From the NCBI GenBank assembly GCA_963677815.1, contig OY782499.1, positions 202,347 to 266,346 on the forward strand: DNA of 64,000 bases. The letters are read 5' to 3'. A model generated the notes under the pieces. The model was not told where the DNA came from and did no database searches. It was given only the letters and a program-made list of their open reading frames with translations. The DNA comes from Candidatus Cloacimonadales bacterium (GTDB lineage: Bacteria; Cloacimonadota; Cloacimonadia; Cloacimonadales; JAFGVF01). A program made the position numbers and the translations under genes. Positions 3,001 to 42,001 of the stretch are shown piece by piece. Positions within the stretch are counted from its first letter, which is position 1, and each line of letters begins with the position of its first letter.

Positions 3001-3062
3001 TTGGATTGAGCAGACAAGGATTAATCAAAAAAATAAAAAGGTATAATTTAGACAGAGAATAA
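1..3062 (+). CDS. sigma-54-dependent transcriptional activator (TPR array + GAF-like + AAA+ + Fis-type HTH); 5' end cut by window edge
   Basis: The frame stays open back to base 3 (LAHIDLNNYEKAVDYFREYL is itself TPR-like), so the TTG at 60 in the ORF track is probably not the start. About 500 aa of TPR-like repeats (recurrent YNNLG...Y..A) are followed by the sigma54-interaction core: Walker A GPSGTGKE, ESELFGH, GSFTGA (GAFTGA-loop variant) and Walker B FFLDEI. A C-terminal HTH reads QTQAAKAIGLSRQGLIKKI. Confidence 0.9.
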   Translation, partial: LAHIDLNNYEKAVDYFREYLHLCSKHSNPEAEIIFYLASALFNSNSSNFALEIIKQYSPENIDVLWKIKILLLKSDILMEGEDFDEAGQIIDQVISIAFQIEDKKIQSNILGDTKKLSGKLYYFKNDYDKAADLFMDAETYYKKAENFIGLAAVYNNIGVLYQFKGEYDNSEEMYKKSMELEKNRYNLKGISVCYNNLGGLMDDKGNRLESIYYLKEALQIQTLLNDPYQITNIYNNLGVTYMDEKNYKNSEDAFRKSLEIAINFNFFRVLIPTYNNLGTLFNSKGDWDKAIEYYQKAIDKCLEYDDFDGLIISYSNLGEIYEKRGEFNIAYDLYFKGLELLPKVNDENIKADLYGNIGSVLTNLHKFKEAYSYLVESLDFFKSVDAKHKIVEGYQKQAMYFVMTHNYESAAYYLNQALAIAEELNLTNELGKSYYLKAILERDDAESAKEYILKSIELFLSNSKQYELAQANYLLATILAEAQDWEQALEILNNNRKSIKKFGAIKLLEKNDILIANITKEHKAELEGSRNQVELTNKFYEITKDLGTITNFDTLLEESSNKLVEFSEADSAIVCLYNNQAIKDSWQYLKLINIEKSDKYFDVIMDIAKQSYSSSQKIDHKQPSIAPIYNHIVAFPLSLRNKSQGVIILMTKHGTHYFPEKSINMISALCNQIIVLIENIRTSDLEKTHAQIRGELIESNPFNIIGKSKKMMEIFDLINRIKDTPTTVLVEGPSGTGKELIARAIHYSSIRRNKQFIAQYCGALPETLLESELFGHVKGSFTGAAYDKKGLLELADGGTFFLDEIADISLSTQAKLLRFLQEGEVKRVGSTKTEKVNVRVVCATNVSLIDKVKTGEFRLDLYYRLNVIRIQVPALTERRDDIPLLAVHFLDKYNKHINKKVSGITDEAMTILKNYEWPGNVRQLENEIERAVTLADNNAFIKADDVSPELIHFTANKTTINLLSKPQSLKDAVEELEIQMITQALEETEWNQTQAAKAIGLSRQGLIKKIKRYNLDRE

Positions 3063-7200: not shown

Positions 7201-7656
7201 CTACTCATATTTTTCTAGTCTAGCAGTAATCTTATTCACATGCCCTATTTCCTGTAATCTCAAATCTTCGAACACTTTAAGAGCAAAGTCATCTAAAGCA
7301 GTAAAAGTCTTAAACATTTCATAAGCTTTAGCAGTGTTCTTTTCTCGATTTAATGCAATTTTTAAAACATCAACAGGGGAATAAGAATTTTTTATTTCAT
7401 CAGTATTAATTAACATTTCAAGTAACGCTTTTTCAATATTGATAGTTTTCTCTAGTTCTTGTCTGCTAAGTTTTCCCTCTTCTAGCAACTCTCTTAACCT
7501 GTTATAATGACCAGTTTCTTCTTCAGCTAATTGACTTAATATCTCTTTAACTTGAGAATCTTGAACTATTTCAGTAGCCTTCTTATAAAAAGAAAAACTT
7601 TCTAATTCTATTTTTTCTGCATATTCGATAATTTCTCTTAAATTTAATTCTCTCAT
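7201..7656 (-). CDS. ferritin-like / rubrerythrin-family diiron protein (no rubredoxin domain)
   Basis: 151 aa and predicted all-helical. Two E-x-x-H metal motifs (EEETGH and LQEIGH) are each preceded by a helix with a conserved Glu, as in rubrerythrin-like four-helix bundles. Confidence 0.7.
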   Translation of the reverse strand: MRELNLREIIEYAEKIELESFSFYKKATEIVQDSQVKEILSQLAEEETGHYNRLRELLEEGKLSRQELEKTINIEKALLEMLINTDEIKNSYSPVDVLKIALNREKNTAKAYEMFKTFTALDDFALKVFEDLRLQEIGHVNKITARLEKYE

Positions 7657-7890: not shown

Positions 7891-9696
7891 TTATTTATTC
7901 TTTGTGTTCAAATATTTATCGATAGCCTTGGCAGCGACATGACCGTTAGCTACCCCATTGATTACATCAGGTCCTTTTATGATATCTCCACCAACAAAAA
8001 GCCATTCTAAGGAAGATTGGTATCCTTCATTAACCTGTATTCTTCCTCTAGGACCAAACTTCAAATTTTCTCTTAAACTATCAGAAATATATGATAGATC
8101 CATTCCTTGTCCGATTGATTCAACTATCATATCAGCAGGGAAAAACTTCTTCTTGTCTGTATCGAATTTTGGATTAAAAACTCCAGATTCATCGAATACT
8201 GATAAACATTTAACAAGATGTAAGCCTTTTATCTTATTATCTACTATTTCTATTTCTTGTGGGCCCCAACCTGGTTCAATGATAGCTTTTTCTTCTCTTG
8301 ATTCTACTATTTCTTCCCTATCAGCAGGCATAATATCTTCTGTTTCAAGACTGGTAGTAGTGATATCAACTTTGCCATACTTCTGATTTTGCAGTCTAGC
8401 TAAAGTTCTAGTAATATCCATAGCCACATTACCACCTCCGATTACTACTATCTTCTTACCAACAGGAATATTTTCTCCAAGAGTGAATTGTCTTAGTAAA
8501 TCTGTAGCGAAATAGACTTCAGGATTATCCGAACCGGGTATTTTTGTAGATCTTCCTAAATGAAGACCAGTTGCAGCATATACAGCAGAATAATCTTGAT
8601 GAAGTTCTTCTAAACTTATATCCTGACCAATACGGGTGTTAAACTGAATTTCTACTCCTAAAGATTTTATGTAATCTATATCTTTATTGATTTGATCATA
8701 AGGAAGTCTGTATTCAGGGATACCATAGCGCATCATACCACCAGAATCAGGTAAAGCTTCGAATATTTTTACCTTGTAGCCTAAAATCGCCAAATAATAG
8801 GCTGCTGAGAGTCCAGAAGGACCTGCTCCGATTACAGCAATTTTATGATTTAGTTTTGGATCAGCAAGATGTTCTGAGCCTAGTACTTCCTGGTATTTCT
8901 CTGCAGGAATTTGATCCGCTATATAACGTTTCAACCAACGTATAGCAATGGGATCACCATTATTATGTAAGGCACAAGCTGTCTCACATTTATGGGTACA
9001 AATTCTCCCACATATTTCAGGAAGAGGATTGGTTTCATAGAGAATCCTAAAAGCTTCTTCTATGTTATCTTCTCTAAGTGCTGCTATATAAGCAGGAATA
9101 TCCATGTGAGCAGGACATGTTGCAGTACATAATCCACATTCTAAACATCTGTCAGCTTCAAGCAATGCTTGTTCTTTATTATAGCCTTTGATAATTTCTA
9201 TAAATGATTTATCTCTTGCATCAGGGGCTAATTCGTCCATCTCAATTCTATCAAATTTAATAAGAGCAATATCTTCAGATCTAGCATAACCCTTTTCATC
9301 ATCTTGCCACTTAGTTTTATCAGCTCCAGGAGTGAATCTAAAGACTTCTGGGTCATCATCAATCCAAATGTATTCATTCGACATTGTTAAAGCCCCTGTA
9401 GGGCAAATATCTACACATAAGGCACACCAACAACATCTACCGTAATCTATACGTGGACGTAAGCCACTATTACCATCTGTAACTTCTTGTCCAGCTACTG
9501 CCACTAAATCAATTGCTGCATTCTGACAAATCTCTTCACAAGAACCACAGCCTATACATTTGGTAAAATCATTTTGGTGAAAACCTCGATAATTATCAGC
9601 ACCAGGTCTATCTTTTATAGGGTCTTTAACTGTCCAAGGTTCTTCAGCAATTCTCTTCCAAATAGTTAATGGTTGAATAATATCTTTTAATTTCAT
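7891..9696 (-). CDS. fusion protein: NuoI/MbxN-like 2x[4Fe-4S] ferredoxin + GltD/SudA-like FAD/NAD(P)H oxidoreductase (last gene of Mbx-type operon)
   Basis: The N-terminus has two ferredoxin motifs (CIGCGSCEEICQ, CCWCALCVDICP). Two further Cys clusters follow (CLECGLCTATCP, CGRICTHKCETAC) as in GltD. A Rossmann motif IAVIGAGPSGLSAAYYL and a second motif VVIGGGNVAMD are present. Its start lies 2 nt after the stop of the NuoD-like gene. Confidence 0.85.
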   Translation of the reverse strand: MKLKDIIQPLTIWKRIAEEPWTVKDPIKDRPGADNYRGFHQNDFTKCIGCGSCEEICQNAAIDLVAVAGQEVTDGNSGLRPRIDYGRCCWCALCVDICPTGALTMSNEYIWIDDDPEVFRFTPGADKTKWQDDEKGYARSEDIALIKFDRIEMDELAPDARDKSFIEIIKGYNKEQALLEADRCLECGLCTATCPAHMDIPAYIAALREDNIEEAFRILYETNPLPEICGRICTHKCETACALHNNGDPIAIRWLKRYIADQIPAEKYQEVLGSEHLADPKLNHKIAVIGAGPSGLSAAYYLAILGYKVKIFEALPDSGGMMRYGIPEYRLPYDQINKDIDYIKSLGVEIQFNTRIGQDISLEELHQDYSAVYAATGLHLGRSTKIPGSDNPEVYFATDLLRQFTLGENIPVGKKIVVIGGGNVAMDITRTLARLQNQKYGKVDITTTSLETEDIMPADREEIVESREEKAIIEPGWGPQEIEIVDNKIKGLHLVKCLSVFDESGVFNPKFDTDKKKFFPADMIVESIGQGMDLSYISDSLRENLKFGPRGRIQVNEGYQSSLEWLFVGGDIIKGPDVINGVANGHVAAKAIDKYLNTKNK

Positions 9697-9698
9697 TT

Positions 9699-10901
9699 TT
9701 ACCTCTCAATCTCAGGTGGGCAAGTGTGAAGAGAAACCATCAAGGCTGCTAAATCTGAAATCGTGATATTAACAGCCAACTTTTCTAATACCGATATTGC
9801 GTGGGTATAGCTAGCACCTCTTGCAAAAACTCTTCTAGGATATTTGCTTCCATCAGATACCATATAAAAACCATGTTCACCTCTAGTAGACTCAGCTTTA
9901 ATATAAGTTTGGCCAGCAGGTATTTTCCAATGAAGAACATTTGGTAATTTTGTCTGGATTTCTCCCTTCTCAGGTATTTTATTTATTATTTGTTTTACTA
10001 AACTTAGACTTTGCAAAAGTTCTTGCAAACGAAGTTCTGCTCTGTCATAAGCATCGCCAATATTCGAAGTTAACATTTTAAAAGTTAACTCTGGGTATTT
10101 GAGATAAGGTTGATTTATTCTAATATCATCGGCTATACCAGAAGCTCTAGCTGTAGGTCCAACAATACCATATTCACTTACCATCTCTTTAGTAATGATT
10201 CCTAAACCTTTTAATCTAGCTTTAGTAATTGCATTATTAAAGAAGACTCTTTCAATATCATCAAGTAACTTGTAAGTTCTATCTACTGTTTTGAGCACTC
10301 TTTCTTTAAAGCCTTGAGGAAGGTCTTTTCTCACTCCTCCAGGTATCATATACATGTGGTAAATTCTTCCCCCAGTCATTTCTTCAAACAAATCTAACCA
10401 GTAGTCCCTCATAGCAACTGTCCACTGACCTATGGCCCCCATACCTAATGAACCAGCCTGTCCTCCTAACCACATTAGAAAACCAGCGACTCTAGACATT
10501 TCTAGGTTCAAGGTTCTTAACCAAGAAGCCTTTTCAGGAATTACTATTCCTGCTAAATCTTCCATAGCTGCAGAGACACAATATTCATTAGTATCAGGTT
10601 CTGGTACGCAGATTCTACATACTATAGGAAAACATTGTATGTATCTTCTTCTCTCCATCAATTTTTCAAAACCTCTATGCAGATAGCCAACATGTGTTTT
10701 AGCATCTACTATTTCATCGCCATTGACAAGAATTTCAACAGACATATTTCCTGTTACACCAGGGTGTTGAGGACCTTGCCAAATCTTAGTAAATTTATGA
10801 GATTCTAAATCTATTACAGGCTTCCCATCCTCCATCTGAGGATATTTAGATCTATCTGCAATATAATCTTTGTACTTGCTTTCAGATACTTTACTCATCA
10901 T
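9699..10901 (-). CDS. NuoD / group-4 [NiFe]-hydrogenase large-subunit homologue, Mbx/MBS 'L'-type (incomplete NiFe cysteine set)
   Basis: 400 aa with NuoD/MbhL-like sequence. At the position of R-x-C-G-x-C it reads R-I-C-V-P-E. At the C-terminal D-P-C-x-x-C position it reads H-T-C-P-P-E-I-E-R, so only the first Cys of each pair is kept. Confidence 0.85.
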   Translation of the reverse strand: MMSKVSESKYKDYIADRSKYPQMEDGKPVIDLESHKFTKIWQGPQHPGVTGNMSVEILVNGDEIVDAKTHVGYLHRGFEKLMERRRYIQCFPIVCRICVPEPDTNEYCVSAAMEDLAGIVIPEKASWLRTLNLEMSRVAGFLMWLGGQAGSLGMGAIGQWTVAMRDYWLDLFEEMTGGRIYHMYMIPGGVRKDLPQGFKERVLKTVDRTYKLLDDIERVFFNNAITKARLKGLGIITKEMVSEYGIVGPTARASGIADDIRINQPYLKYPELTFKMLTSNIGDAYDRAELRLQELLQSLSLVKQIINKIPEKGEIQTKLPNVLHWKIPAGQTYIKAESTRGEHGFYMVSDGSKYPRRVFARGASYTHAISVLEKLAVNITISDLAALMVSLHTCPPEIER

Positions 10902-11451
10902 CCCTCCTTATCTTTGGAGCTTGTGGGAAATTAGGATATTTTACTTTCTGCATTTGTTCTTTAGGGTCATTTGTTTCTCGACCTGGACGCTGATAATAAG
11001 TCTTTTGAGAATACTCTAATGTATCAAAATCTCTTCTCATTGGTGGCATTTCGTCCCAGCTTTCCATTATGAATGGTTCTGAAACCCTTGGAGAATTTGG
11101 GAAATCTATACCAAACATTTCATAGAGCTCTCTCTGATATTGCCAAGCATGAGCCCATAAAGTATGAATGGAATGCATAGAAGCTTGCTGTCTATCAATA
11201 AACACATTGATAGCTAAATTAACCTTCAAGTCATAATTATAAACCATGTATGTGAGCATAAATTTATTATCTTCCAGATAATCAACAGCTTGAAGAAAAG
11301 CCAAATGTTTGAAAGCAAGTTGATTTTTTAAATAAGATAAAGCTATTACCAATTGCTCTCTATCTACAGTGATAAAAACAAGATCTGGATGTTTCTCAAC
11401 TATATTTTTCACTTTTACCATTTTACTTAATTCATTAATTATATTTTTCAT
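10891..11451 (-). CDS. NuoC / MbxK-like 30-kDa subunit
   Basis: Size (186 aa) and its position between the NuoB-like and NuoD-like genes fit. NuoC-like core reads YLKNQLAFKHLAFLQAVDY...RELYEMFGIDF. RBS is AGGAG. Confidence 0.8.
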   Translation of the reverse strand: MKNIINELSKMVKVKNIVEKHPDLVFITVDREQLVIALSYLKNQLAFKHLAFLQAVDYLEDNKFMLTYMVYNYDLKVNLAINVFIDRQQASMHSIHTLWAHAWQYQRELYEMFGIDFPNSPRVSEPFIMESWDEMPPMRRDFDTLEYSQKTYYQRPGRETNDPKEQMQKVKYPNFPQAPKIRRDDE

Positions 11452-11459
11452 AGTAACTC

Positions 11460-12101
11460 CTACCAGTTGTAGTCTGGCATATTCCAGTCTTTGATTATCT
11501 TCTTTTGATTAGCCTTGTACCAATCAAAATTATCAGCATACTTATTCATCCCATCACATTCACCTGCTTGAATCTTCTGCTTGAGTCCATTGAAACCAGC
11601 TATCAAGGCTTCAGGTCTAGGCATACAGCCTGTAACATAAATATCTACCGGTATGTAGTAATCTATTCTATTAATCGTGTTATAAGAATCATAATACATA
11701 CCGCCATTGATAGTACATGAGCCCAGGGCAATTACATATTTAGGTCCTTGCATTTGTTCATAAGATCTAATTATTCTCTTGATAGTTTTCAAGGAAGCAT
11801 AGCCTCCAATAATGAAGACATTTGCTTGCCGAGGGGTAGGTCTGCCTGCTATACCATAGCGAAAGGCATCAAATCTTGCTGTCATCAAGGGTCTTAATTC
11901 AATAGCTCCACAACCAGTTCCGTAGGCCAATATCCAGAGAGATCTAGCTCTTGCCCAATTAAGGAATTGTTCTAAGTATTTATTAAGTGGCTCTATCCTA
12001 GAAGGTCTGTCATTAGCAAATAAATCTCTTTCATACTCTGGAAGTCCTTCATTAGCTAATTTCATTTCTTTTTCTATTTCTTTTATATCTTTTTCTTTCA
12101 T
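11460..12101 (-). CDS. NuoB / MbxJ-like [4Fe-4S] small subunit
   Basis: NuoB-type motifs are present: GTGCGAIE, GSCTINGGMYY and GCMPRPE. Confidence 0.85.
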   Translation of the reverse strand: MKEKDIKEIEKEMKLANEGLPEYERDLFANDRPSRIEPLNKYLEQFLNWARARSLWILAYGTGCGAIELRPLMTARFDAFRYGIAGRPTPRQANVFIIGGYASLKTIKRIIRSYEQMQGPKYVIALGSCTINGGMYYDSYNTINRIDYYIPVDIYVTGCMPRPEALIAGFNGLKQKIQAGECDGMNKYADNFDWYKANQKKIIKDWNMPDYNW

Positions 12102-12110
12102 TTCAACTCC

Positions 12111-13022
12111 TTAAAAGTAGGCGATAAATAGGACTGATAAAATTCCTATTAAGGTTGGTATTCTTAAAAAGAACCTAAATGATTGTTCTGGTCTAAATCT
12201 AGGGAAAGCAGCTCCTACAAAAACTGAGAAGAGATAGATACAGAAGGTTTTTAGCATCATCACAGGTAAATTAGTAGCTCCACCAAAGAAGAGGTTCATA
12301 AAGAGAACTAATTTAGCTGAAGCAAAGAGGGCTCTGTTTGTCTGTAGAGTTCCCAAAAAGCTACCATTCATCTCGATTGGAGGACCAATTGGTATCTCTT
12401 GAGGTGCTAAGACTAAAGAAAAAGGTGAATGCATATTCATCCCTAAGAGAGAAATCATAGCAGCTATAACAGCTAGAGGGTTAGTAAAGAGAGTCCAATT
12501 TAAGAAAGAACCTTGTTGAGCTGCAACAATAGTAGTTATATTCAAAGTTTGATACTGAATAGCTATGGATATTACTGCTAAAGAGAAAGGTAGTTCAAAA
12601 GTTGACATCTGAGCTAAACCCCTTGCAATACCAAGAGGTGAATAGGGATGTCCCCCTTCTCCAGCACCTAAAGCCATACCTAATTGTCCAAAGAAAATGA
12701 AATACATAACAAGGAGTAAATCCCCAGCCATGGAATAATTACTAAAGACAACTGAACCAAAGATAACTGGAATAAATAGATAGGTTCCCATCCCCCCAGC
12801 TAATCTAAAAACAGGTCCTAGGAAGTACATATATCCGTGAGAAATAGCAACTTTTCTCCCATGAGTCTGAATTATATCTAATAGTGGTTGCCATACCGGA
12901 GGTCCTATCCTCCTATGCACTCTGGCATATATTTTATGAACAAGACCTACTAAGAATATTCCATAAAGAGTTGCAACTAGTATAGAAATAACAGCATATA
13001 CCATTTTAATAAAAATATCCAT
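12111..13022 (-). CDS. NuoH / MbxM-like integral membrane subunit
   Basis: 303 aa polytopic membrane protein placed between the antiporter-like genes and the NuoB-like gene. The N-terminal RRIGPP...QP motif is typical of NuoH/HycD/MbhM. Confidence 0.8.
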   Translation of the reverse strand: MDIFIKMVYAVISILVATLYGIFLVGLVHKIYARVHRRIGPPVWQPLLDIIQTHGRKVAISHGYMYFLGPVFRLAGGMGTYLFIPVIFGSVVFSNYSMAGDLLLVMYFIFFGQLGMALGAGEGGHPYSPLGIARGLAQMSTFELPFSLAVISIAIQYQTLNITTIVAAQQGSFLNWTLFTNPLAVIAAMISLLGMNMHSPFSLVLAPQEIPIGPPIEMNGSFLGTLQTNRALFASAKLVLFMNLFFGGATNLPVMMLKTFCIYLFSVFVGAAFPRFRPEQSFRFFLRIPTLIGILSVLFIAYF

Positions 13023-13025
13023 AAC

Positions 13026-16000
13026 TTACACTCCTAAGAAAAATACTATTACGAAGAAAAGAATTATATGTAACAAGTAAGTTTGGCCATTACCTGAATA
13101 GATTCTTCTTGTTACATCAGCTAAGGTATGGGCCCACTCAGCTGTTCCATGCCAGAAGTCCCAAATACGAGGTTTTCCCCATGAACCAAGAGCTTTACGA
13201 TAATGAGCAAACATATTATGAGCAACATGAGTTGTTTGAGGAGTATGAGGTCTTTCTCCAGCATAAACAATATTAAATTGTTTCACTTTGGTTATCTTTC
13301 CTATATAGAGTATCAAGAAAAATAATGGAACTATAAAGACACCCATAGTAACTAACATAATCAAATTACCGTTCCAGTGTCCATAAGGACTATATACATT
13401 ATATCCATCTATAACAATATTAGAATTGAAATACTGCTGTGCCATAGCACTTAAAGGTCTTATAAGTAAATTAGGGAAGGTAGAAAGAATCATTATTGCA
13501 CCAATATAGATATATTGTGGAATAATAAACCAAATTGGAGCTTCCTTAACATCTTTGTGTTGGTGTTTGGCTTGTCCAAGAAATACACTATGAATCAACC
13601 TGTATAAATAGAGGAAACTCACTGCAGAGGCAAAGAATAAAACTCCTGCCTGTAAGTACCAACCCCTTTCAATAAAGGAGGAATACATTAGCCACTTAGA
13701 CCCAAAACCTGATAAAGGTGGAACACCTGAAACTGCAATAATCGAAATTAGAACACTTATGAAAGATAAAGGCATTTTCTTAATTAAGCCCCCCATTTCA
13801 TACATATTACGTGTATGTGTTCTGTAGTAAATACCAGCAATAGCTATAAATAGTGCTGATTTAAACATCATGTGATTAAGCGATAGATAAAAGGCAGAAA
13901 CCCAACCTAAATGACTAAGCATGGATGCTGCACCAATTATATATCCAACCTGACTCATACTTGAATAAGCTAATAAGCGTTTAACATCTTCTTGGAAAGC
14001 AGCAAGGAAGGCACCTACAAGAGCTGTAAATACCCCTATCCAACCAATCCAGTAATAGATATCAAATTTAGGGAAACTTGAAACAGCTGATATTGCTACT
14101 AAAATAAATCCCCAGATACCTGCTTTTAAGAGAATAGCAGAAATAAAAGATGAGACATCAGCTTCTGCTTCTGCATGAGCTTCAGGTAACCATACATGGA
14201 GACCTAGCAGACCAGATTTAACCATAAATCCTAGTGATAACATTATTATTGAGATTAGAGGAAGATCTATCTGACTCATACTTGTAATTAGTGGAGAAGT
14301 ACTTATTAATTGAGGTGCAAAAGCAAAACCTGTAATCATTAATAAAGCACCTGCCATTGAGAATAAGAGATACATTAATGAAGCTTTACTAGCCTTCTTT
14401 CCTCTAAGTATTAACAGAAATGATGAAATAGTCATTAACTCCCAAGAAAAGAAAAACTCGAGATAAGAAGTAGCTACCAAGAGATTTCCAAAAGATAAAA
14501 TCATCATTAAAAGCAATCCATAAAATCCTACACTTATATCTTTTCTATTAAGAGTTGAGATTATGTTTATACCTGAGCCAATTATGAAAATTACTCCAAA
14601 TAATATTTGAATAGGATTACTTAAATCAAAATAATTATATAAATAATAAGCAAATCCAGTCACTGCTCCTAAGGAAATAAAGCCCTTAATCTTACTTGGT
14701 AAGAAATCAAGACTTAGCATTATAAATAGAGCCAGTAATGGAAGCTTAATTACAAGATTGCTAGGGAAGTAATATGCAAAGAAAGTTAAAGCTACAGGAA
14801 TAGTAATTATCCCTAACAAGATTAAAACTAAACGCTGATTTCCTGTATATATCTGACTATAACCTAGAGTATTATTTGTATTAGACTTAACTATATTTAT
14901 AAACCATCTAAACAAATAAACAATTTCAAATAATGAGCCAAGCAAAATCATTACTAAGACAAAATAATTATTAGCAGTTACTAAAGCACGAATAAATTCC
15001 CATTTTGCCCAAAATCCTGCAAAAGGAGGTAGTCCTGATAAAGCAAAAATTAGGAGCCCAAAAATAAGTAACAATATTTTATTACTTTTTAGAGCATCCC
15101 AGTCTTTCATTCGTTCATTGTTAACAATTCCACTTAGCCAAAAGAGTCCAGTTTTAGCTAATAGATGATTCAGGAAAAATCCACCCACTATTAACATTCT
15201 TATCTCATTATTTAATCCTTTGGTAAAGATTAAAGAAGCTAGCAGGAGGCCTATTTGACCGATAGAAGAGTAACCAAGTAACCTTTGACTATTCTTTTGC
15301 ATTAAACCCATTAGATTAGATAGTAAGAAAGTCAGGCCAGCTATAATACCAAAAACTTGGAGAAGATTACTAGGTATCAAAGCTAGTATTTTATGGAACA
15401 TAAAGAGAATTCCAGCTGAATTAACCACAGAAATTATTGCGGCCATTCCTGGATGAGTGCTTTCATAAACATCTAAAGCCCAGCCATTAACAGGGAAAGT
15501 TTTTAATTCTATCATTAATCCTATAGCTAATAAGTAAATAGCTATCACCTTGTAACCAGTAAAAGATACTGTTATAAATTCAAGATTTAGAGTTCCTGTA
15601 AAGAAATAAATAAATACAACTCCTAGAAGATAAAATATAGAAGCAATTCCACTAGCTAACATGTACTTGAAAGCAGATGATAATGAATTTTCACCTCTAC
15701 CTAAAGTTACTAAAGCAACAGTAGAAATTGAAATTATTTCTAAAAAGACAAATGAATTAAACAAGTCTCTTGTTAAAACAATACCATTAACCCCCATTAT
15801 CATTATTAAATAGAGAATCATAGAAGAAATTGAATCATTCTCAAATGATTTCCCTAAATAAATTGCAGTAAGAAAAGCGATAAAATTAACAGCTACTAAA
15901 ATTATCGATTCAGTTATGCTAACCCTAAAATTAATTGATAATGGAGCAATAAAACCTGCTGTATCAAAGACAAGTTTATCAATTCCTGAAACAATTATTT

Positions 16001-16148
16001 TTTGAATCCAACTTGCTGAAATTACTAAATTGCTGGCTAACAAGCCCAAGAAAATAGAATAAGATAACTTTCTATTTACTTTATCAAGAAGCGGTAAGAT
16101 AAAAGCAGTCAGTAAAGATAATATGATTATATATAGAGGGTTTACCAT
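13026..16148 (-). CDS. fused double MrpD/NuoM/NuoN-type antiporter-like subunit (MbxH-H' equivalent)
   Basis: 1040 aa and extremely hydrophobic. Two antiporter-like modules are present: the first has GWALDVYESTHPGMAAI and the second has the canonical HVWLPEAHAEA motif. Each is followed by a LLAYSS(I/M)(G/S)Q(I/V)G motif. Confidence 0.8.
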   Translation of the reverse strand: MVNPLYIIILSLLTAFILPLLDKVNRKLSYSIFLGLLASNLVISASWIQKIIVSGIDKLVFDTAGFIAPLSINFRVSITESIILVAVNFIAFLTAIYLGKSFENDSISSMILYLIMIMGVNGIVLTRDLFNSFVFLEIISISTVALVTLGRGENSLSSAFKYMLASGIASIFYLLGVVFIYFFTGTLNLEFITVSFTGYKVIAIYLLAIGLMIELKTFPVNGWALDVYESTHPGMAAIISVVNSAGILFMFHKILALIPSNLLQVFGIIAGLTFLLSNLMGLMQKNSQRLLGYSSIGQIGLLLASLIFTKGLNNEIRMLIVGGFFLNHLLAKTGLFWLSGIVNNERMKDWDALKSNKILLLIFGLLIFALSGLPPFAGFWAKWEFIRALVTANNYFVLVMILLGSLFEIVYLFRWFINIVKSNTNNTLGYSQIYTGNQRLVLILLGIITIPVALTFFAYYFPSNLVIKLPLLALFIMLSLDFLPSKIKGFISLGAVTGFAYYLYNYFDLSNPIQILFGVIFIIGSGINIISTLNRKDISVGFYGLLLMMILSFGNLLVATSYLEFFFSWELMTISSFLLILRGKKASKASLMYLLFSMAGALLMITGFAFAPQLISTSPLITSMSQIDLPLISIIMLSLGFMVKSGLLGLHVWLPEAHAEAEADVSSFISAILLKAGIWGFILVAISAVSSFPKFDIYYWIGWIGVFTALVGAFLAAFQEDVKRLLAYSSMSQVGYIIGAASMLSHLGWVSAFYLSLNHMMFKSALFIAIAGIYYRTHTRNMYEMGGLIKKMPLSFISVLISIIAVSGVPPLSGFGSKWLMYSSFIERGWYLQAGVLFFASAVSFLYLYRLIHSVFLGQAKHQHKDVKEAPIWFIIPQYIYIGAIMILSTFPNLLIRPLSAMAQQYFNSNIVIDGYNVYSPYGHWNGNLIMLVTMGVFIVPLFFLILYIGKITKVKQFNIVYAGERPHTPQTTHVAHNMFAHYRKALGSWGKPRIWDFWHGTAEWAHTLADVTRRIYSGNGQTYLLHIILFFVIVFFLGV

Positions 16149-16495
16149 TTTAACTCCTTGTAGTCATCTATAGAAAAAGATGACTTTTTCTTATACATCT
16201 CTGAAGCAAATACTAGCATCAAAGCTGTTGTTGCTAACCCTATAACTATGGCTGTTAATACCAAAGCAGAAGGAATAGGGTCAATCACTTCTTGGATTGA
16301 TTTAGTGATTTCAACTGAACTATCCAAAATAGGAGCAGTTCTTCCTCTGATATAACCTAGAGATACAATTATTATATGTATGCCTGTATCAGCAATCGAG
16401 AAACCTAATATGATTTTAATTATATTTTTACGGGATAACATGGTGTAAATACCTAAAATTACCAAAATAAAACCTAAGATTAATGTCACAGTCAT
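16142..16495 (-). CDS. MrpC/MnhC/NuoK-like small membrane subunit
   Basis: 117 aa with three predicted TM helices, in an operon position equivalent to MbxG/MrpC. It overlaps neighbours by 4-7 nt. Confidence 0.7.
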   Translation of the reverse strand: MTVTLILGFILVILGIYTMLSRKNIIKIILGFSIADTGIHIIIVSLGYIRGRTAPILDSSVEITKSIQEVIDPIPSALVLTAIVIGLATTALMLVFASEMYKKKSSFSIDDYKELKW

Positions 16496-17202
16496 CTTTC
16501 CCCCTTCTTCAATCTTTCTGAAGATGTCTCACTCCCCATAGTATCAATTATGTTTGTTAACTCAGCACCTACTTTGAAACCTATGAGAGAATATACTAAT
16601 GGAATAGCTCCAGCAGAGAAAATCTTTCCATACTGTCCAAGAGGTAAGAGACTAGGATTAAGGAAACCTAAAGTTAAAACAAGCCCTATTAATCCAATAA
16701 CTACATAGGCAAAACCTGAGATTGATTCTACAATATTTAGTATTATATGACTCAGAGTAAAATCTAAATCGGATAAAATTAAAAGAAGGAAACCTGAAGC
16801 AATTACAACTCCACCTTGGAAACCTCCCCCAGGGCTCAAATGTCCATGAGTAAAGATATAAATCCCCAGTACCATAATTAAACTTACAAGAAATGAAGAA
16901 CTTGTTTTTATGTTCTCAGAAACATCTCTTTTCTTCCCTTTTCTTCTTTTATTTTGTAGCAAATATCCAACTCCTAAAGTAGCAAGAAATAGTACTGTAA
17001 CTTCCCCCAGGGTATCTAAACCACGATATGTAACGACTATGGAAGTAACTACATTTGGGCTATTAAGCTCTACCACTGAACCTTCAACATAACTTGTAGC
17101 CAAAGGATTAAGAGAATCTTGACCTTGAAAGTTCTCAATGAAAGGTATGAATACTATTATAAGGCCTATTATTCCTAGGACAGCTAAAATTTTATTTATC
17201 AT
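16492..17202 (-). CDS. MrpB/MnhB-like membrane subunit
   Basis: MnhB signature V..IVVTYRGLDTLGEVTVL is present, with multiple TM helices. Confidence 0.75.
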   Translation of the reverse strand: MINKILAVLGIIGLIIVFIPFIENFQGQDSLNPLATSYVEGSVVELNSPNVVTSIVVTYRGLDTLGEVTVLFLATLGVGYLLQNKRRKGKKRDVSENIKTSSSFLVSLIMVLGIYIFTHGHLSPGGGFQGGVVIASGFLLLILSDLDFTLSHIILNIVESISGFAYVVIGLIGLVLTLGFLNPSLLPLGQYGKIFSAGAIPLVYSLIGFKVGAELTNIIDTMGSETSSERLKKGER

Positions 17203-17443
17203 CTTCTTCCCCCTTACGCATCCTATTTAAGGCATATAGGAAGACAACTGTAGTCAAAGCAGAACCAATTGAAGCTTCAGTCATAGCTACATCTGGAGAG
17301 CCTAACAGTAGATATATTAAAGAAGCTAACAAGCTTACTACTCCTGCTGAGATAATAGCTGAAACTAAATTTTTCTGAAAAATAGTATATATGGCAGCTA
17401 AAATCATTATGATAGCTAAAGCAATTATTATAAATAAAGTCAT
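17192..17443 (-). CDS. small MrpA-C-terminal/MbhD-like (DUF4040-type) membrane subunit
   Basis: 83 aa and hydrophobic. The motif GSPDVAMTEASIGSALTT resembles the DUF4040/MnhB N-terminal region. Confidence 0.6.
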   Translation of the reverse strand: MTLFIIIALAIIMILAAIYTIFQKNLVSAIISAGVVSLLASLIYLLLGSPDVAMTEASIGSALTTVVFLYALNRMRKGEEDDK

Positions 17444-17784
17444 TGATTACCTCCTGTTAGCTTTTCATCATCATCTTTTAACTCATCTTTAAGTGACATT
17501 TTTGCTAACTTGATTCCAGAATAATGGGCAGCTCTAGCTATTACATTTGAAGAAACAGGATTTGTAGCAATTACAAATAAAATAATTATAGCTATCTTTC
17601 CGCACCAAGCTGAACCAAAATTTGCTAACCCTATACCAATGGAAAACAGGATTGTTCCTAGGGTTGTGGCTTTAGTTCCAGCCTGCATTCTGTTATATAC
17701 ATCTGGCATTCTCAACACACCTAGAGCTCCTAAAAAAAGAAAAAGTGAGCCAAGAAGAGTGATTATTGCAGAAAATAATTCCAT
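17440..17784 (-). CDS. MrpG/MnhG-like antiporter subunit
   Basis: The MnhG-type motif GALGVLRMPDVYNRMQAGTKATTLG is present. Confidence 0.8.
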   Translation of the reverse strand: MELFSAIITLLGSLFLFLGALGVLRMPDVYNRMQAGTKATTLGTILFSIGIGLANFGSAWCGKIAIIILFVIATNPVSSNVIARAAHYSGIKLAKMSLKDELKDDDEKLTGGNQ

Positions 17785-18044
17785 TATAACCCCCTCTCTA
17801 AATATCTGGCAAAAGCAACAACACCAATAAAGCTAACTAATCCATAAACAATGGCAACATCCAGGTAAATGATCCGTTGAGCTAGATGGGAAATAAAGAC
17901 TATCAATGATATTGAGATAATAGTCATAGCATCCAAAGCAACTATTCTATCTGCTAAAGTAGGACCTTTAAATAATCTTATTAGAACCAAAAATAAGCTT
18001 AAAATAATTAATCCTGCAGAAATTTGATATAATAAATTAACCAA
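17784..18044 (-). CDS. MrpF/MnhF-like antiporter subunit
   Basis: 86 aa, with the MnhF-type motif LFKGPTLADRIVALD. Confidence 0.8.
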   Translation of the reverse strand: MVNLLYQISAGLIILSLFLVLIRLFKGPTLADRIVALDAMTIISISLIVFISHLAQRIIYLDVAIVYGLVSFIGVVAFARYLERGL

Positions 18045-18528
18045 AAATCACCTCCAGATATTTTTCAAATTTAACAACTATAGCCTCTGTGGTAGAATTT
18101 ATATCAGAAACAGAAACGTCTATCCAATGGATGTAAAAATATTCTCCCTTCATCTCTACAGTGAGAGTTCCAGGAGTTAAAGTAATTGAATTAGCAAGAA
18201 AAGCCCTTCCTAGAGGTGTTTTAAGTTTTGTTTTAACCTTAACAATACCAGGGTTTATAGGTAATTTTGGTGAGATAACTCTTCTAGCTACATCTAAATT
18301 TGATTTTATCAATTCCCAGCTAAAAACAAAAATATACCTAATAAAATAGATGATTGCTTTTAAACTGAACTTGATATCCCCTAAAATTCTTAGTCTTGGT
18401 AAAAATAATAGCGTAACTAATAAGGCTACCAATCCTCCGAATATAACTTCTTCTGTAGTCATTCCAGCTAACAGAATCCAAGTAATAAACAATAGAAATG
18501 TGGCAATAATAAATGTCTTAGCTCTCAT
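18037..18528 (-). CDS. MrpE/MnhE-like antiporter subunit
   Basis: 163 aa with two N-terminal TM helices, then the MnhE-like core ITLTPGTLTVE. It is the first structural gene after the TetR gene. Confidence 0.75.
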   Translation of the reverse strand: MRAKTFIIATFLLFITWILLAGMTTEEVIFGGLVALLVTLLFLPRLRILGDIKFSLKAIIYFIRYIFVFSWELIKSNLDVARRVISPKLPINPGIVKVKTKLKTPLGRAFLANSITLTPGTLTVEMKGEYFYIHWIDVSVSDINSTTEAIVVKFEKYLEVIFG

Positions 18529-18538
18529 TGTGCTTTCC

Positions 18539-19141
18539 TCACACTTGTTTTATTGAATCTATGATCAAATCAAAAAGGTAATCAAAATTATTTTCACCTT
18601 TTGTCCCTAATTCTGAAATAAAACTCTCATCTTCTCCCCATAAAGCTTTTGCTAATTTATCGACATCAATACTCGATTTAACAGACCTATCTTCGATACC
18701 CTGCAGAAGATATTTCTTAATCGTTTGATTAATGTCTTTATTATAATTTGCATTTTTATCAATTTCCTTATCAATAGCTTGACATTGTTGTTTGTGATAC
18801 TTGAAAGTCTCAAATATTTTACGAAAATCGTCTTTTTTTGAGAATTCACTTAAGAACTTTTCCTTAAAAGTTATCAATTTTTGCAAGCCTGTGTACTTCT
18901 TTTTCGAAATTTCATTTGCTAATTGAGCTATATCCATAAAATAATTATTTACTATACAAAAACAAACTTCATTCTTACTTTTGAAATATGAGTAGATAGA
19001 ACCCTTGCTATAGCCAACCTTCTTAGCTATCTCTAGCATTGTTGTATTTTCAAATCCTTTAGAAAAAAATATTTCCTTCGCAGCAGTTACTATTAAATTC
19101 TTTTTAAACTCGTATTCTTGTTGCTTACGATTAATTATCAA
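18539..19141 (-). CDS. TetR-family transcriptional regulator (first gene of Mbx-type operon)
   Basis: N-terminal TetR HTH reads TTMLEIAKKVGYSKGSIYSYFKSKNEV. TTG start is preceded by AAGGAAG at 6-nt spacing. There are 10 nt between its stop and the MrpE-like start. Confidence 0.85.
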   Translation of the reverse strand: MIINRKQQEYEFKKNLIVTAAKEIFFSKGFENTTMLEIAKKVGYSKGSIYSYFKSKNEVCFCIVNNYFMDIAQLANEISKKKYTGLQKLITFKEKFLSEFSKKDDFRKIFETFKYHKQQCQAIDKEIDKNANYNKDINQTIKKYLLQGIEDRSVKSSIDVDKLAKALWGEDESFISELGTKGENNFDYLFDLIIDSIKQV

Positions 19142-19187
19142 AATACACTTCCTTTTAATAAATTTCTTATTTAATTAAATCATATTC

Positions 19188-19216
19188 ATTTTATTGACTC
19201 TTGGTCAATTTGTCAA
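19188..19216 (-). promoter_or_regulatory. sigma70-type promoter of the TetR/Mbx-type operon
   Basis: On the minus strand: TTGACA (19216-19211), a 17-nt spacer, then TAAAAT (19193-19188), about 45 nt upstream of the TTG start. Confidence 0.6.
19193..19209. promoter_or_regulatory. candidate TetR operator: perfect palindrome ATTGAC-N5-GTCAAT in the promoter spacer
   Basis: ATTGACTCTTGGTCAAT lies exactly between the -35 and -10 hexamers of the operon that begins with a TetR gene. Confidence 0.5.
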
Positions 19217-19457: not shown

Positions 19458-20417
19458 ATGTTAAGAACTGCTGAATTTGTAAGTCCAGGACATCCGGACA
19501 AATTATGTGACAGAATTGCTGATAGCATTCTGGATGTTTGTTTAGCACAGGATGAAAATACTCGTGCAGCCATCGAAGTAATGGGTGGCCACAAATTAAT
19601 AAGTGTTACAGGTGAAATTACCACCTCAGCATTTGTTAATGTTCAAGAAACTGTTAGAAAAATTACTGGTGAAAACTGTGGTGTTCAGGTAAATATTGTC
19701 AGACAATCACCTGAAATCGCTAATGGTGTTGATACTGGGGGAGCAGGTGACCAAGGTATAATGATTGGCTACGCCTGTAATGAAAATGAAGAAATGATTC
19801 CTCAAGAAGCCTATCTGGCCCGTTCATTAAATCGTTATTTATACAAAAATCATCCCTACGATGGTAAAACTCAAGTTACACTTAAAGATCAAGAAATAAT
19901 AGCTATAGTTGCTAGTTTCCAGTTAAGCCCAACTTCTGAATTAAAAGAAGAGATTAAAGCATGGGCAAAGGAAATGAACTTAGATATATCTAATACTAAG
20001 GTTCACGTTAATCCTGCTGGAGAATGGAATGTAGGAGGCTTTGACGCTGATACTGGTGTTACTGGTAGAAAACTAGCTGTAGATAACTATGGACCTAGGA
20101 TTCCTATTGGAGGTGGCGCTTTTTCTGGTAAAGACTCTACCAAAGTAGATAGATCAGGAGCTTATATGGCTAGACGTATTGCTGTTGATTACCTTAAAAA
20201 ATACCAAGCTAAAGAAGTATTTGTTGAACTAGCTTATGCAATTGGTGTTGCTGAACCAGTACAAGCTACTGCTGTAGTTGATGGTCAAGAAATGCAGGTG
20301 GAAGGCTATGATTTAACTCCTAGAGGTATCATTAAAGCTTTAGGATTAACAAAAGCTATCTTCGCATCTACTGCAGAATGGGGACATTTTGGTAACAAAT
20401 TCAACTGGGATAAATAA
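19458..20417 (+). CDS. metK: S-adenosylmethionine synthetase, compact (319 aa) form
   Basis: MetK motifs are present: SPGHPDKLCDRIAD, GAGDQGIMIGYA, TGRKLAVDNYG and GGGAFSGKDSTKVDRSGAYMAR. RBS is AAGGAG. It is about 65 aa shorter than the 384-aa E. coli MetK. Confidence 0.9.
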   Translation: MLRTAEFVSPGHPDKLCDRIADSILDVCLAQDENTRAAIEVMGGHKLISVTGEITTSAFVNVQETVRKITGENCGVQVNIVRQSPEIANGVDTGGAGDQGIMIGYACNENEEMIPQEAYLARSLNRYLYKNHPYDGKTQVTLKDQEIIAIVASFQLSPTSELKEEIKAWAKEMNLDISNTKVHVNPAGEWNVGGFDADTGVTGRKLAVDNYGPRIPIGGGAFSGKDSTKVDRSGAYMARRIAVDYLKKYQAKEVFVELAYAIGVAEPVQATAVVDGQEMQVEGYDLTPRGIIKALGLTKAIFASTAEWGHFGNKFNWDK

Positions 20418-29749: not shown

Positions 29750-29927
29750 ATTTTCTCCCTTAATTAATGTGCGTTTTACACTCAAATTTGCATAAAACAC
29801 TGTTGTTTGTAATTTGCTAGTAAATCTGAGGGGGATTGTGTAGTGTGCGTGGTGATGCATTTTAATGGTGCAAGCCCCTACAGCCCTAACTCATTACAAT
29901 GTAATTATTTATAAAATACATGTTATT

Positions 29928-36134: not shown

Positions 36135-36538
36135 AATGTTTTTCTCCCATAACATTCTTAGTGTTATATCGTTTTTTTGGGTGTAACATATAATAGGAAG
36201 TGTTGAAAAATATCTACAAGTCGGACGCTTATGATTACTGTGGTGATGTAATCAAAAGCGTACCAGACATTGTCTTACGAATATTCTTAAAACTTCTCAA
36301 TGTGCTGTTACAAATTTAATTTTACTTACATAGGTGCTCTAGTTAATTGTTTGTTTGTTATGAGAATTACAGTGGTGAAGTAATTTCTCATCAACAATTT
36401 TCTTTGCACCATAGTCTCTTAATCTTCAGTTTCAATCAGTGTTTGGCTACTTTCTTATATAGTAGTGTGGTGGCATCTCATATTAGTGTAGCCCAACGTG
36501 ACCAAAGTAAAGATCTATTTCTCATTAATTCTAAGTAC

Positions 36539-37078: not shown

Positions 37079-37639
37079 TTATCTTTCTCTTTTCTTACCA
37101 TTATTCTTAATATAATTAATTACTTTAAAGTAGTGGTCCTCATTTCTTATATAGCGATCAAAATAATCATCCATCCAAAATTTACCTTTTCGCTTTAGCA
37201 ATTGATTTGCTTTCTTTGCAGTAAAGGATTTCCAACTTTGAATTATTTCGTGGAGATGTTGACTTTCATAAGGTCCAATCAAAACATGCACATGATTTGG
37301 CATAATTATCATTTCAATTAAGTCATATCTTACTTTATCAAAATATTTAAGAGCATTTTCAACAATTTCATACACTTTCGGATTTTTTAGATAGCATTGA
37401 CCATATCCATTATCTTCATATCTATGTAGAAATTGTTGTAATCTTTCATATTCACAGCTATTTTTATCTATTGATTTTTTCATAATAGCTAATTCACTTT
37501 TTTTGTATTCAATTACCTGTTGCGGAATAGAATCATGTAATCTAAATGTTATGAATTGATACACTTTATCATTATCATAGTGAGGAATACCACTTCTCTT
37601 ATAATAACCTTTTAGTTCTTCTTCAAATAAGAAACACAC
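37079..37639 (-). CDS. REP-associated tyrosine transposase (RAYT; IS200/IS605-type Y1 HUH transposase family)
   Basis: 186 aa with HUH motif PNHVHVLIG and the C-terminal Tyr motif FWMDDYFDRYIRNEDHYFKVINYIKNNG. RBS is AGGAGG. No IS ends or tnpB are present; the gene is flanked on both sides by REP arrays. Confidence 0.8.
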   Translation of the reverse strand: MCFLFEEELKGYYKRSGIPHYDNDKVYQFITFRLHDSIPQQVIEYKKSELAIMKKSIDKNSCEYERLQQFLHRYEDNGYGQCYLKNPKVYEIVENALKYFDKVRYDLIEMIIMPNHVHVLIGPYESQHLHEIIQSWKSFTAKKANQLLKRKGKFWMDDYFDRYIRNEDHYFKVINYIKNNGKKRER

Positions 37640-41819: not shown

Positions 41820-42001
41820 AACTGGGAAGGGGGATTCCCAGTTATTTAAGAGAAGAGCGGGCTGGAATCCCGCATTCCCAGTTAGCATAGCAAAAGCCCC
41901 GCTTTCGCAGGGCTTTTTAATTTATTTGAGTGTGCCGGCAAGGATGCCGGCGCTCCCAGTTATTTAAGAGAAGAGCGGGCTGGAATCCCGCATTCCCAGT
42001 T
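41820..42001. repeat. REP cluster abutting the P4 stop codon
   Basis: It contains a collapsed palindrome AACTGGGAAGGGGGATTCCCAGTT and three reverse REPs, including the stem variant GCCGGCAAGGATGCCGGC. The last REP ends in ..CCCAGTT, and its final TT plus the next A form the P4 TAA stop on the minus strand. Confidence 0.95.
41893..41916 (-). terminator. probable terminator of P4 (after two REPs)
   Basis: GC hairpin AAAGCCCCGC-tttc-GCAGGGCTTT. The T-run is short on the minus strand (TTTTG) and longer on the plus strand. Confidence 0.5.

Follow-up and report, generated by a model that had tools for sequence, protein, structure and literature searches.

An MBS-type membrane complex with two fused subunits encoded in a Candidatus Cloacimonadales genome

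Organization of the operon and conservation of its two fusions

The stretch of DNA analysed here (hereafter, the window) comprises 64,000 nucleotides of contig OY782499.1 (positions 202,347 to 266,346, forward strand) in assembly GCA_963677815.1 of a Candidatus Cloacimonadales bacterium. Its minus strand contains, in 19141..7891, 13 open reading frames (ORFs) whose ends overlap or nearly abut (Table 1). Gene families were assigned with Pfam and NCBIfam, "MbhD" being the Pfam name for the former DUF4040. These genes make up an operon consisting of a TetR gene and 12 structural genes of a membrane complex of the MBS type. The original prediction, made from the letters of the sequence, had listed the genes correctly throughout, and its order (TetR, MrpE, MrpF, MrpG, DUF4040, MrpB, MrpC, a double MrpD, NuoH, NuoB, NuoC, NuoD and NuoI/GltD) is borne out by the ORF coordinates and the Pfam matches. 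Terminator prediction gave no intrinsic terminator on either side of the operon, and searches of the window for Rfam families and tRNAs yielded none.

Table 1. Features of the operon and its immediate surroundings (window coordinates)
Feature	Coordinates	Strand	Evidence and remarks
TetR-family regulator	18539..19141	-	Pfam TetR_N 2.6e-15; first gene of operon; stop codon 10 bp ahead of next start
MrpE/MnhE-like membrane subunit (MbsA position)	18037..18528	-	Pfam MNHE 1e-41; kept in all complete loci
MrpF-like subunit (MbsB position)	17784..18044	-	Pfam MrpF_PhaF 1.5e-17
MrpG/MnhG-like subunit (MbsC position)	17440..17784	-	Pfam PhaG_MnhG_YufB 7.8e-25
MbhD-like (DUF4040) subunit (MbsD position)	17192..17443	-	Pfam MbhD 7.1e-22
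Fused MbhE + MnhB subunit (MrpB-like), equivalent to MbsE	16492..17202	-	Pfam MnhB and MbhE
MrpC/NuoK-like subunit (MbsG position)	16142..16495	-	Pfam Oxidored_q2 1.5e-20
Fused MbsH-MbsH' double antiporter-like subunit, 1040 aa	13026..16148	-	two Pfam Proton_antipo_M stretches
NuoH-like membrane anchor, equivalent to MbsM	12111..13022	-	Pfam NADHdh
NuoB-like subunit, equivalent to MbsJ	11460..12101	-	Pfam Oxidored_q6
NuoC-like subunit (MbsK position)	10891..11451	-	Pfam Complex1_30kDa 3.7e-25
NuoD-like subunit, equivalent to MbsL	9699..10901	-	Pfam Complex1_49kDa
NuoI-GltD/NfnB-like fusion, 601 aa	7891..9696	-	Fer4_7 46-102, Fer4_20 162-265, Pyr_redox_2 285-577
Rubrerythrin-like accessory/trailing gene	7201..7656	-	Pfam Rubrerythrin 8.6e-10; 234 bp downstream, same strand as operon
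Candidate operon promoter (TTGACA, 17 nt, TAAAAT)	19179..19216	-	promoter scan 11/12
Palindrome TTGACCAAGAGTCAA, candidate TetR operator	19194-19208	-	between the promoter hexamers

Related loci were collected by scanning a one-genome-per-species collection with two NuoI-domain motifs. The NuoI-GltD fusion recurs across genomes in at least 590 confirmed loci; 80 were fetched, and their ORFs were compared with the window proteins by BLASTP. The fetched loci belong to Cloacimonadota, Fermentibacterota, Delongbacteria, Aminicenantes, Bacteroidota (Prolixibacter, Draconibacterium, Salinivirga and Lentimicrobiaceae), Neomarinimicrobiota, Spirochaetia and Chlorobiota, and one comes from a Thiohalospira metagenome-assembled genome (MAG). 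Candidatus Cloacimonadales MAG chromosomes were the closest among the matches listed, with a 601-aa protein 89–90% identical to that of the window. Wherever a related contig was long enough, the same 12 structural genes were present in the same order. For MBS, we take the reference order to be MrpE, F, G-MbhD-MrpB-MrpC-H-H'-NuoH-B-C-D-NuoI, with NuoH ahead of NuoB, NuoC and NuoD. The operon and all complete related loci have this content and order, including the position of NuoH. This reference order is consistent with the description in PMC10356935.

Two features stood out in the original prediction: the fusion of both antiporter modules in one polypeptide (H-H', 1040 aa) and the fusion of NuoI to a GltD-like module (601 aa). 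Both are genuine, but their unusualness was overrated, since both are the rule in a very large clade of bacteria and the GltD link had already been published. H and H' are fused in 50 of the 51 complete loci, the exception (L061) being split into 679 and 410 aa. The 1040-aa protein has a database record at 100% identity. Nearly all of its best 120 relatives measure 1033–1078 aa, and those that are shorter are mostly partial records. For the 601-aa protein, an identical record exists on a 2.88-Mb contig, the best 120 database relatives are 593–611 aa long and 65–90% identical, and the linker (residues 110–170) holds invariant residues across 117 sequences. Residues 2–600 align with positions 7–610 of the curated model NF010590/PRK13984, that is, over its full length. 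The score of 858 bits lies below the equivalog cut-off of 946, and the protein is therefore best placed, on this score, in a sister clade of the NF010590 equivalogs, outside the curated threshold. The frameshift or joining of two genes that the original prediction had considered for the 601-aa ORF was not found. It is hardly credible that one or both fusions arose by sequencing or assembly error (frameshift or mis-join), as hundreds of independent assemblies, as well as isolates, give the same lengths, a curated hidden Markov model spans the full length, and the junctions are conserved.

The design itself occurs widely among anaerobic bacteria and has been known in outline since 2015, and the window locus is a well-preserved example of it from Cloacimonadales. 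In the 'mbx-like' operons of Thermotoga and proteobacteria, a gltD-related flavoprotein takes the place of NuoI and was treated as the NAD(P)+ site (Degli Esposti 2015, PMC4758237); the original prediction was thus correct on the GltD-like component of Thermotogae clusters. The MBX of T. maritima has been described as a 13-subunit MBS homologue induced by S0 (PMC9431562), and bacterium 3DAC has a 13-gene MBS that is also induced by S0 (PMC10356935). The window operon resembles these mbx-like operons in combining an Mrp module with NuoH, NuoB, NuoC and NuoD, in joining an Fe-S subunit to a GltD-like flavoprotein and in its trailing rubrerythrin gene (PMC4758237, PMC9431562). Unlike the T. maritima MBX, whose 13 subunits imply a separate H and H', it has a fused H-H' and is led by a TetR gene. 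A rubrerythrin gene at the end of mbx-like operons is frequent but not universal (PMC4758237); among the related loci, homologues were found downstream in 11 (Cloacimonadota, Marinimicrobia and Spirochaetes).

Surveys of Cloacimonadota have reported a 'group 4g NiFe hydrogenase linked to Mrp' or an 'incomplete complex I (nuoBCDH...)' (PMC8542988; bioRxiv 10.1101/2021.10.08.463351), and public records name the 601-aa protein 'glutamate synthase small chain' or 'FAD-dependent oxidoreductase'. It is probably the MBS-type complex that is concealed behind such names. A literature search that did not cover Schut et al. 2013 (FEMS Microbiol Rev) and Wu et al. 2018 (JBC) returned no description of the H-H' fusion, nor of the complex in Cloacimonadota, Bacteroidota, Marinimicrobia or Fermentibacteria. 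New here are a putative Leu-Glu signature for NADH, a conserved promoter-palindrome arrangement upstream of TetR and an additional dihydroorotate dehydrogenase (DHOD)-like protein in Bacteroidota.

Affinity to MBS and the fate of the hydrogenase and quinone sites

Family affinity was ranked by bit score against Protein Data Bank chains and by signature residues, using P. furiosus MBS (6U8Y) as the MBS reference. All six subunit types compared scored best against 6U8Y chains, 30–150 bits above MBH or complex I. The NuoD-like subunit gave 322 bits with MbsL (6u8y_L), followed by Nqo4 (204), MbhL (153) and HycE (94), while the NuoB-like subunit gave 214 bits with MbsJ (6u8y_J), followed by NdhK (142), Nqo6 (113) and MbhJ (87). 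For the NuoH-like subunit, the score was 167 bits with MbsM (6u8y_M) versus 55 with each of MbhM and NdhA. The MrpB-like subunit matched MbsE (6u8y_E) over its full length with 154 bits, whereas the MBH matches were divided between MbhF (48) and MbhE (39). Finally, the NuoI domain (residues 7–123 of the 601-aa protein) gave 79 bits with MbsN, 47 with NuoI and 39 with MbhN. The original prediction had preferred Mbx/MBS to Mbh, and both the scores and the signature residues described below agree with it; the L and J subunits do not fall with Mbh/Ech hydrogenases or Nuo, their best matches being MbsL and MbsJ.

The motifs RICVPEPD and CPPEIER of the NuoD-like subunit are common to MbsL. Two cysteines, C98 and C394, are retained (equivalent to C85 and C385 of MbsL), and in place of the other two NiFe ligands there are E101 and E397. 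Motif L1 reads R-I-C-V-P-E and L2 reads T-C-P-P-E, and the four-Cys ligand set of NiFe enzymes (RxCGxC, DPCxxC) was not found. In all 73 NuoD-like relatives, the second Cys of L2 is replaced by Glu. It should be noted that C95-x-x-C98 was also considered as an intact L1 CxxC and dropped: in the R-x-C register, C98 is the first Cys and E101 the second, while C95 is an extra, non-conserved residue.

An H2-evolving group-4 [NiFe] hydrogenase of the Mbh type linked to Mrp would explain the homology of the subunits to group-4 hydrogenases and corresponds to the 'group 4g' assignment made for related Cloacimonadota genera (PMC8542988). With only two of the four NiFe Cys ligands left, the invariant Glu at the second L2 position and a score of 153 bits for MbhL against 322 for MbsL, we consider this function very improbable. 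Moreover, hyp maturation genes were not seen among the window ORFs scanned.

The quinone site gave a comparable picture. The Nqo4 residues that bind the quinone head group, H38 and Y87, correspond to T50 and V99 in the NuoD-like subunit, and Thr and Val are invariant at these positions in 73 of 73 relatives. A candidate match of Y87 with the Tyr of 'RRRYIQ', by which the quinone Tyr would have been retained, was rejected, as the numbered alignment puts Y87 at V99. In the NuoB-like subunit, just three Cys residues are invariant (C64, C129 and C159, 66/66 sequences). A single Cys is found in GTGCG, and the tandem-Cys motif of complex I cluster N2 is absent. The position of the non-ligating C25 of MbsJ is Gly in all 66 sequences; C25 of MbsJ as well as C85 and C385 of MbsL are dispensable in P. 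furiosus MBS (PMC7684303). The proximal [4Fe-4S] cluster is thus predicted from these residues to be held by three Cys ligands only. In MBS, a three-Cys proximal cluster with one open Fe is the catalytic site for polysulfide reduction, and the three invariant Cys of the NuoB-like subunit match this centre (PMC7684303).

An alternative NADH:quinone oxidoreductase, in which the NfnB/GltD-like module stands in for NuoEFG and the chamber serves to reduce menaquinone, has to be weighed against these residues. The layout is indeed like that of complex I, in which an NADH module and an Fe-S wire are likewise combined with a NuoB/D/H chamber and antiporter-like pumps, and many carriers are Bacteroidota, which have menaquinone. 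The transfer from NADH to menaquinone would yield ample energy, and the chamber opening of MBS equals that of complex I in width (PMC7684303). Given the replacement of both quinone ligands throughout the family, the missing NuoB tandem-Cys motif and the sequence affinity to MBS rather than Nuo/NDH, we regard quinone reduction as improbable, if less so than hydrogen evolution.

In comparison with complex I/NDH-1, the operon has homologous NuoB, NuoC, NuoD, NuoH, NuoI and NuoK as well as antiporter-like subunits, and a peripheral Fe-S wire leads to a chamber at the membrane interface. Unlike complex I, it is devoid of NuoA, NuoJ and NuoEFG, contains two instead of three antiporter-like subunits together with MrpE, MrpF, MrpG and MrpB, and lacks the quinone ligands H38/Y87 and the tandem Cys of N2. 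The similarity to P. furiosus MBS extends to collinear genes, the motifs RICVPEPD and CPP[DE]I[DE]R, the loss of both the NiFe site and the quinone ligands, the three-Cys proximal cluster, two antiporter-like subunits of which the second has MrpA-like C-terminal helices, and an MbsE corresponding to fused MbhE and MbhF. The differences are the following. H and H' form a single polypeptide in the window, giving 12 structural genes instead of 13. The MbsN of the window carries a 450-aa NfnB/GltD-like FAD/NAD(H) module, while archaeal MbsN stands alone and is fed by free ferredoxin. The window also has Gly at the position of MbsJ C25, TetR instead of SurR and a mesophile-type Cloacimonadales host. 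Judged by its sequences, the complex is of the MBS/Mbx type and neither a hydrogenase nor a quinone reductase.

The 1040-aa protein contains an MrpD/MbsH-like N-terminal half (residues ~1–450) and an MrpA/MbsH'-like C-terminal half. Residues 7–306 match MbsH (6u8y_H), and residues 526–1040 match positions 88–618 of MbsH' (6u8y_X), up to its last residue. The C half includes the C-terminal helices (the HL/TMH15-16 extension, which replaces MbhI); in MBS, the C-terminal helices of MbsH' bridge to the peripheral arm. Charged residues were compared in 51 sequences. E570, K644, K675, H759, K763 and K818 of the C half and E137, K216, K332 and K382 of the N half are invariant (51/51), while E214 and H328 of the N half are kept in 50/51. 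At the position of the TM8 lysine K250 of MbsH, the window protein has Ser (residue 244), and Ala, Ser, Gly or Thr is found across 51 relatives. Since the canonical charged residues are kept in 50–51 of the 51 sequences, both antiporter-like halves look functional, the N half departing from MbsH at one position.

The NuoI-GltD/NfnB-like subunit, operon control and neighbouring genes

A domain search of the 601-aa protein found Fer4_7, Fer4_20 and Pyr_redox_2. An MbsN-like part with two [4Fe-4S] clusters (residues 1–~125) is followed by an NfnB/GltD-like part with a further two [4Fe-4S] clusters, FAD and NAD(H) sites (residues ~150–601). For residues 150–599, the scores were 272 bits with StnC, 264–270 with NfnA of NfnABC, 257 with NfnB, 245 with NfnI-L, 170 with GltD and 125 with dihydropyrimidine dehydrogenase (DPD); this part is nearer in sequence to the bifurcating-type members than to GltD or DPD. 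An AlphaFold2 model based on a 13-sequence alignment reached a pLDDT of 47, and a 117-sequence alignment was used instead, which gave a confident single body (pLDDT 82.8, pTM 0.81). According to Foldseek, the C-terminal 450 residues superpose on NfnI-L (5jfc_L), Xfn, NfnB (4ylf_B) and GltD with TM scores of 0.85–0.86.

All 16 cluster Cys residues, the GxGxxG motif for FAD and the GGGxxA motif for NAD are invariant in 80/80 sequences. It is a general rule for Rossmann folds that the residues ending the second beta-strand decide between NADH and NADPH. In the 601-aa protein, this strand is followed by an invariant L450-E451, which aligns with 'YRR' of StnC (8oh5_C) and of the GltD-like subunit of Nfn-ABC (9bov_A, Caldicellulosiruptor). 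Both of these are NADPH enzymes and have the Arg-Arg pair for the 2'-phosphate of NADPH, which was not found in the 601-aa protein. Based on the Leu-Glu in place of Arg-Arg and on the Rossmann-fold rule, NADH rather than NADPH is predicted to be the coenzyme. The exchange of electrons with NAD(P)(H) proposed in the original prediction is thus upheld by the invariant Rossmann motifs and cluster Cys, and we infer that it can be narrowed to NADH.

The module (residues ~150–601) has its fold and cofactor motifs in common with NfnB/NfnI-L, StnC, the GltD-like subunit of Nfn-ABC, GltD and the N-terminal module of DPD, and is 34–36% identical in sequence to the Nfn-type members. Unlike the Nfn-type flavoproteins, it is fused to a NuoI-type domain on a membrane complex, is without an NfnA/NfnS partner and has Leu-Glu for Arg-Arg. 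No NfnA/NfnS-type partner ([2Fe-2S] and FAD) was found in the operon, among the scanned window ORFs or among the conserved flanking genes of the 80 loci. Because no such partner appears to be encoded nearby, a second electron exit, and hence bifurcation, finds no support in the sequences.

A near-consensus promoter is located 40–75 bp upstream of the TetR start codon. The palindrome TTGACCAAGAGTCAA between its hexamers occurs once in the window, against a chance expectation of 0.04. The arrangement of TTGACA and TGACyNNNNrGTCA upstream of TetR is kept in 5/5 Cloacimonadota loci, while the flanks have diverged; in total, the promoter-operator motif is kept in six loci. The TetR repressor probably controls the operon in the Cloacimonadales lineage via the palindrome within the promoter. 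Among the related loci compared, a TetR gene at the head of the operon is confined to these Cloacimonadota loci (L001, L002, L004, L009 and L010). In 20 Bacteroidota loci, a divergent gene for a Crp/Fnr-family regulator whose N terminus bears a Cys cluster (CLLCQNKSAC) is found in place of TetR; loci with a divergent upstream Crp/Fnr gene include L014-L022, L030, L035-L036, L041, L054, L060, L069 and L073-L076. With TetR in Cloacimonadota and the Crp/Fnr type in Bacteroidota, the regulator of the operon varies by lineage.

Downstream of the operon, the related loci also differ. A ~328-aa 'dihydroorotate dehydrogenase-like protein' is encoded directly after the NuoI-GltD gene in 41 of the 68 loci whose DNA extends far enough downstream (median gap 16 bp; L014-L030, L032, L034-L036, L041, L043-L044, L048-L051, L055-L063, L066, L068-L069, L072-L074 and others). 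It scores 385 bits with NCBIfam NF005741/PRK07565, above the cut-off, and its carriers are mostly Bacteroidota; in the Cloacimonadota, Fermentibacterota, Spirochaete and Marinimicrobia loci compared, the gene is absent. Taken together, the DHOD-like FMN protein and the NuoI-GltD subunit have the cofactor set of dihydropyrimidine dehydrogenase. A 154-aa CBS-pair protein is encoded downstream in 24 related loci. No homologue of either the DHOD-like or the CBS protein was found anywhere in the window. In addition, single MAGs may contain two separate NuoI-GltD copies together with upstream operon genes (L006/L008 in Fermentibacteraceae, L031/L058 in Spirochaetia, L040/L071 and L068/L077), pointing to paralogues of the complex or to bins that mix strains.

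Several other genes of the window are described here for completeness. Divergent from the operon, an S-adenosylmethionine synthetase gene (19458-20417, +) encodes 319 aa, against the usual ~385–400 aa of MetK, with partial Pfam matches to the N-terminal and central domains. Giant ORFs (1624–2790 aa) form a cluster at 24911-29860 (-), 30210-36155 (-), 42000-50372 (-) and 53527-58401 (+), with a smaller member at 37987-40050 (-). Three of the four giant ORFs were scanned and contain HYDIN/ASH/Cep192-type Ig-like and fn3 domains; a type IX secretion system (T9SS) C-terminal sorting domain was found in the 1624-aa ORF and in a 687-aa ORF. The proteins are probably secreted or located at the cell surface. 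Between the giant surface-protein genes lies a 186-aa ORF (37079-37639, -) with an IS200-like Y1 transposase domain. Two regulatory genes are not linked to the operon, namely that for a 1000-aa sigma-54 activator with a long TPR N-terminal region (60-3062, +) and a second TetR-family gene near the other end of the window (62051-62710, +).

Proposed mechanism and electron acceptor

Based on the above results, we infer the following geometry of the electron wire, identity of the acceptor and coupling to ion pumping. The complex would be a relative of complex I that descended from group-4 hydrogenases and lost the NiFe site. Its membrane arm would consist of a complete Mrp-type module and two fused antiporter-like pumps, and its peripheral arm of MbsJ, MbsK and MbsL seated on the MbsM anchor. 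Electrons would run along a single wire, from NADH to FAD, the two [4Fe-4S] clusters of Fer4_20, the two [4Fe-4S] clusters of the NuoI domain and the three-Cys [4Fe-4S] cluster of MbsJ, each step being reversible in principle. The latter cluster would face the chamber formed by MbsJ, MbsL and MbsM and reduce a hydrophobic substrate there; homology with P. furiosus MBS makes sulfane sulfur (polysulfide) the most likely one. This chamber reaction would drive the export of H+ or Na+. NADH would serve as the built-in reductant, while the NuoI domain may still accept reduced ferredoxin as an additional source of driving force.

Sulfane sulfur reduction driven by NADH and/or ferredoxin and coupled to ion export is the function that we favour, at somewhat less than an even chance, because no other part resembles MBS as strongly as the chamber module and because the bacterial MBS/MBX operons respond to S0. 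Several points weigh against it. From the textbook potentials of NADH (-320 mV) and polysulfide (about -260 mV), the yield is ~12 kJ per electron pair at standard conditions. This is too small for a machine with two pumps and is the main weakness of the proposal; owing to this low yield, the reaction would need a contribution from ferredoxin or an acceptor of higher potential. No sulfur-metabolism genes were found near the operon among the scanned window ORFs, and the carriers include Prolixibacter and Draconibacterium, taxa not known as sulfur reducers. The vestigial MbsL-type Cys pair is kept in ~60% of the 73 NuoD-like relatives and lost in ~40%, and the N half of the H-H' protein is without the TM8 Lys of MbsH. 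Furthermore, the DHOD-like FMN protein added in most Bacteroidota versions hints that a cytoplasmic substrate may be used there.

The same lack of sulfur genes in the scanned window ORFs would be expected if the complex were an ion-translocating ferredoxin:NAD(P)+ oxidoreductase of the Rnf-like kind, where ferredoxin docks on the NuoI domain, electrons leave via the flavoprotein to NAD+ and no substrate enters the chamber. With a fused NAD(H) module, this is the simplest reading of the domain content, and the ~100–180 mV available from textbook potentials are adequate. Such a role has been given for the Thermotogae-type Mbx (PMC4758237; bioRxiv 10.1101/322537). On the other hand, all structurally understood relatives need chemistry in the NuoB/D/H chamber, which a transfer confined to the tip would bypass, and the chamber keeps the catalytic features specific to MBS, with the three-Cys cluster in 66/66 sequences. 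The original assignment of P. furiosus Mbx as a ferredoxin:NADP+ enzyme has been superseded by sulfane reduction (PMC7684303). The function would also be redundant, as Cloacimonadota and T. maritima already encode Rnf. We therefore treat ferredoxin:NAD+ transfer as a real contender that is nevertheless less likely than sulfane reduction.

A broader proposal can be made, which we offer as speculation. The complex may represent a third major class of NADH-oxidising ion pumps beside complex I and Nqr, distributed in anaerobic members of the FCB group, Spirochaetes and Thermotogota and respiring sulfane sulfur or another hydrophobic acceptor at the three-Cys [4Fe-4S] cluster. In Bacteroidota, the DHOD-like FMN protein would then make the peripheral arm a membrane-coupled enzyme similar to dihydropyrimidine dehydrogenase, acting on a cytoplasmic substrate.

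Once the operon is recognised as encoding an intact MBS-type pump that carries its own NADH module, the models of energy conservation change for Cloacimonadota, which are abundant fermenters of digesters and sediments, and likewise for many Bacteroidota and Marinimicrobia. As the carriers include cultivable bacteria (Prolixibacter, Draconibacterium and Thermotoga), the acceptor and the coupling are directly testable. Both the acceptor and the coupling mechanism bear on the evolution of complex I from hydrogenase-like ancestors.

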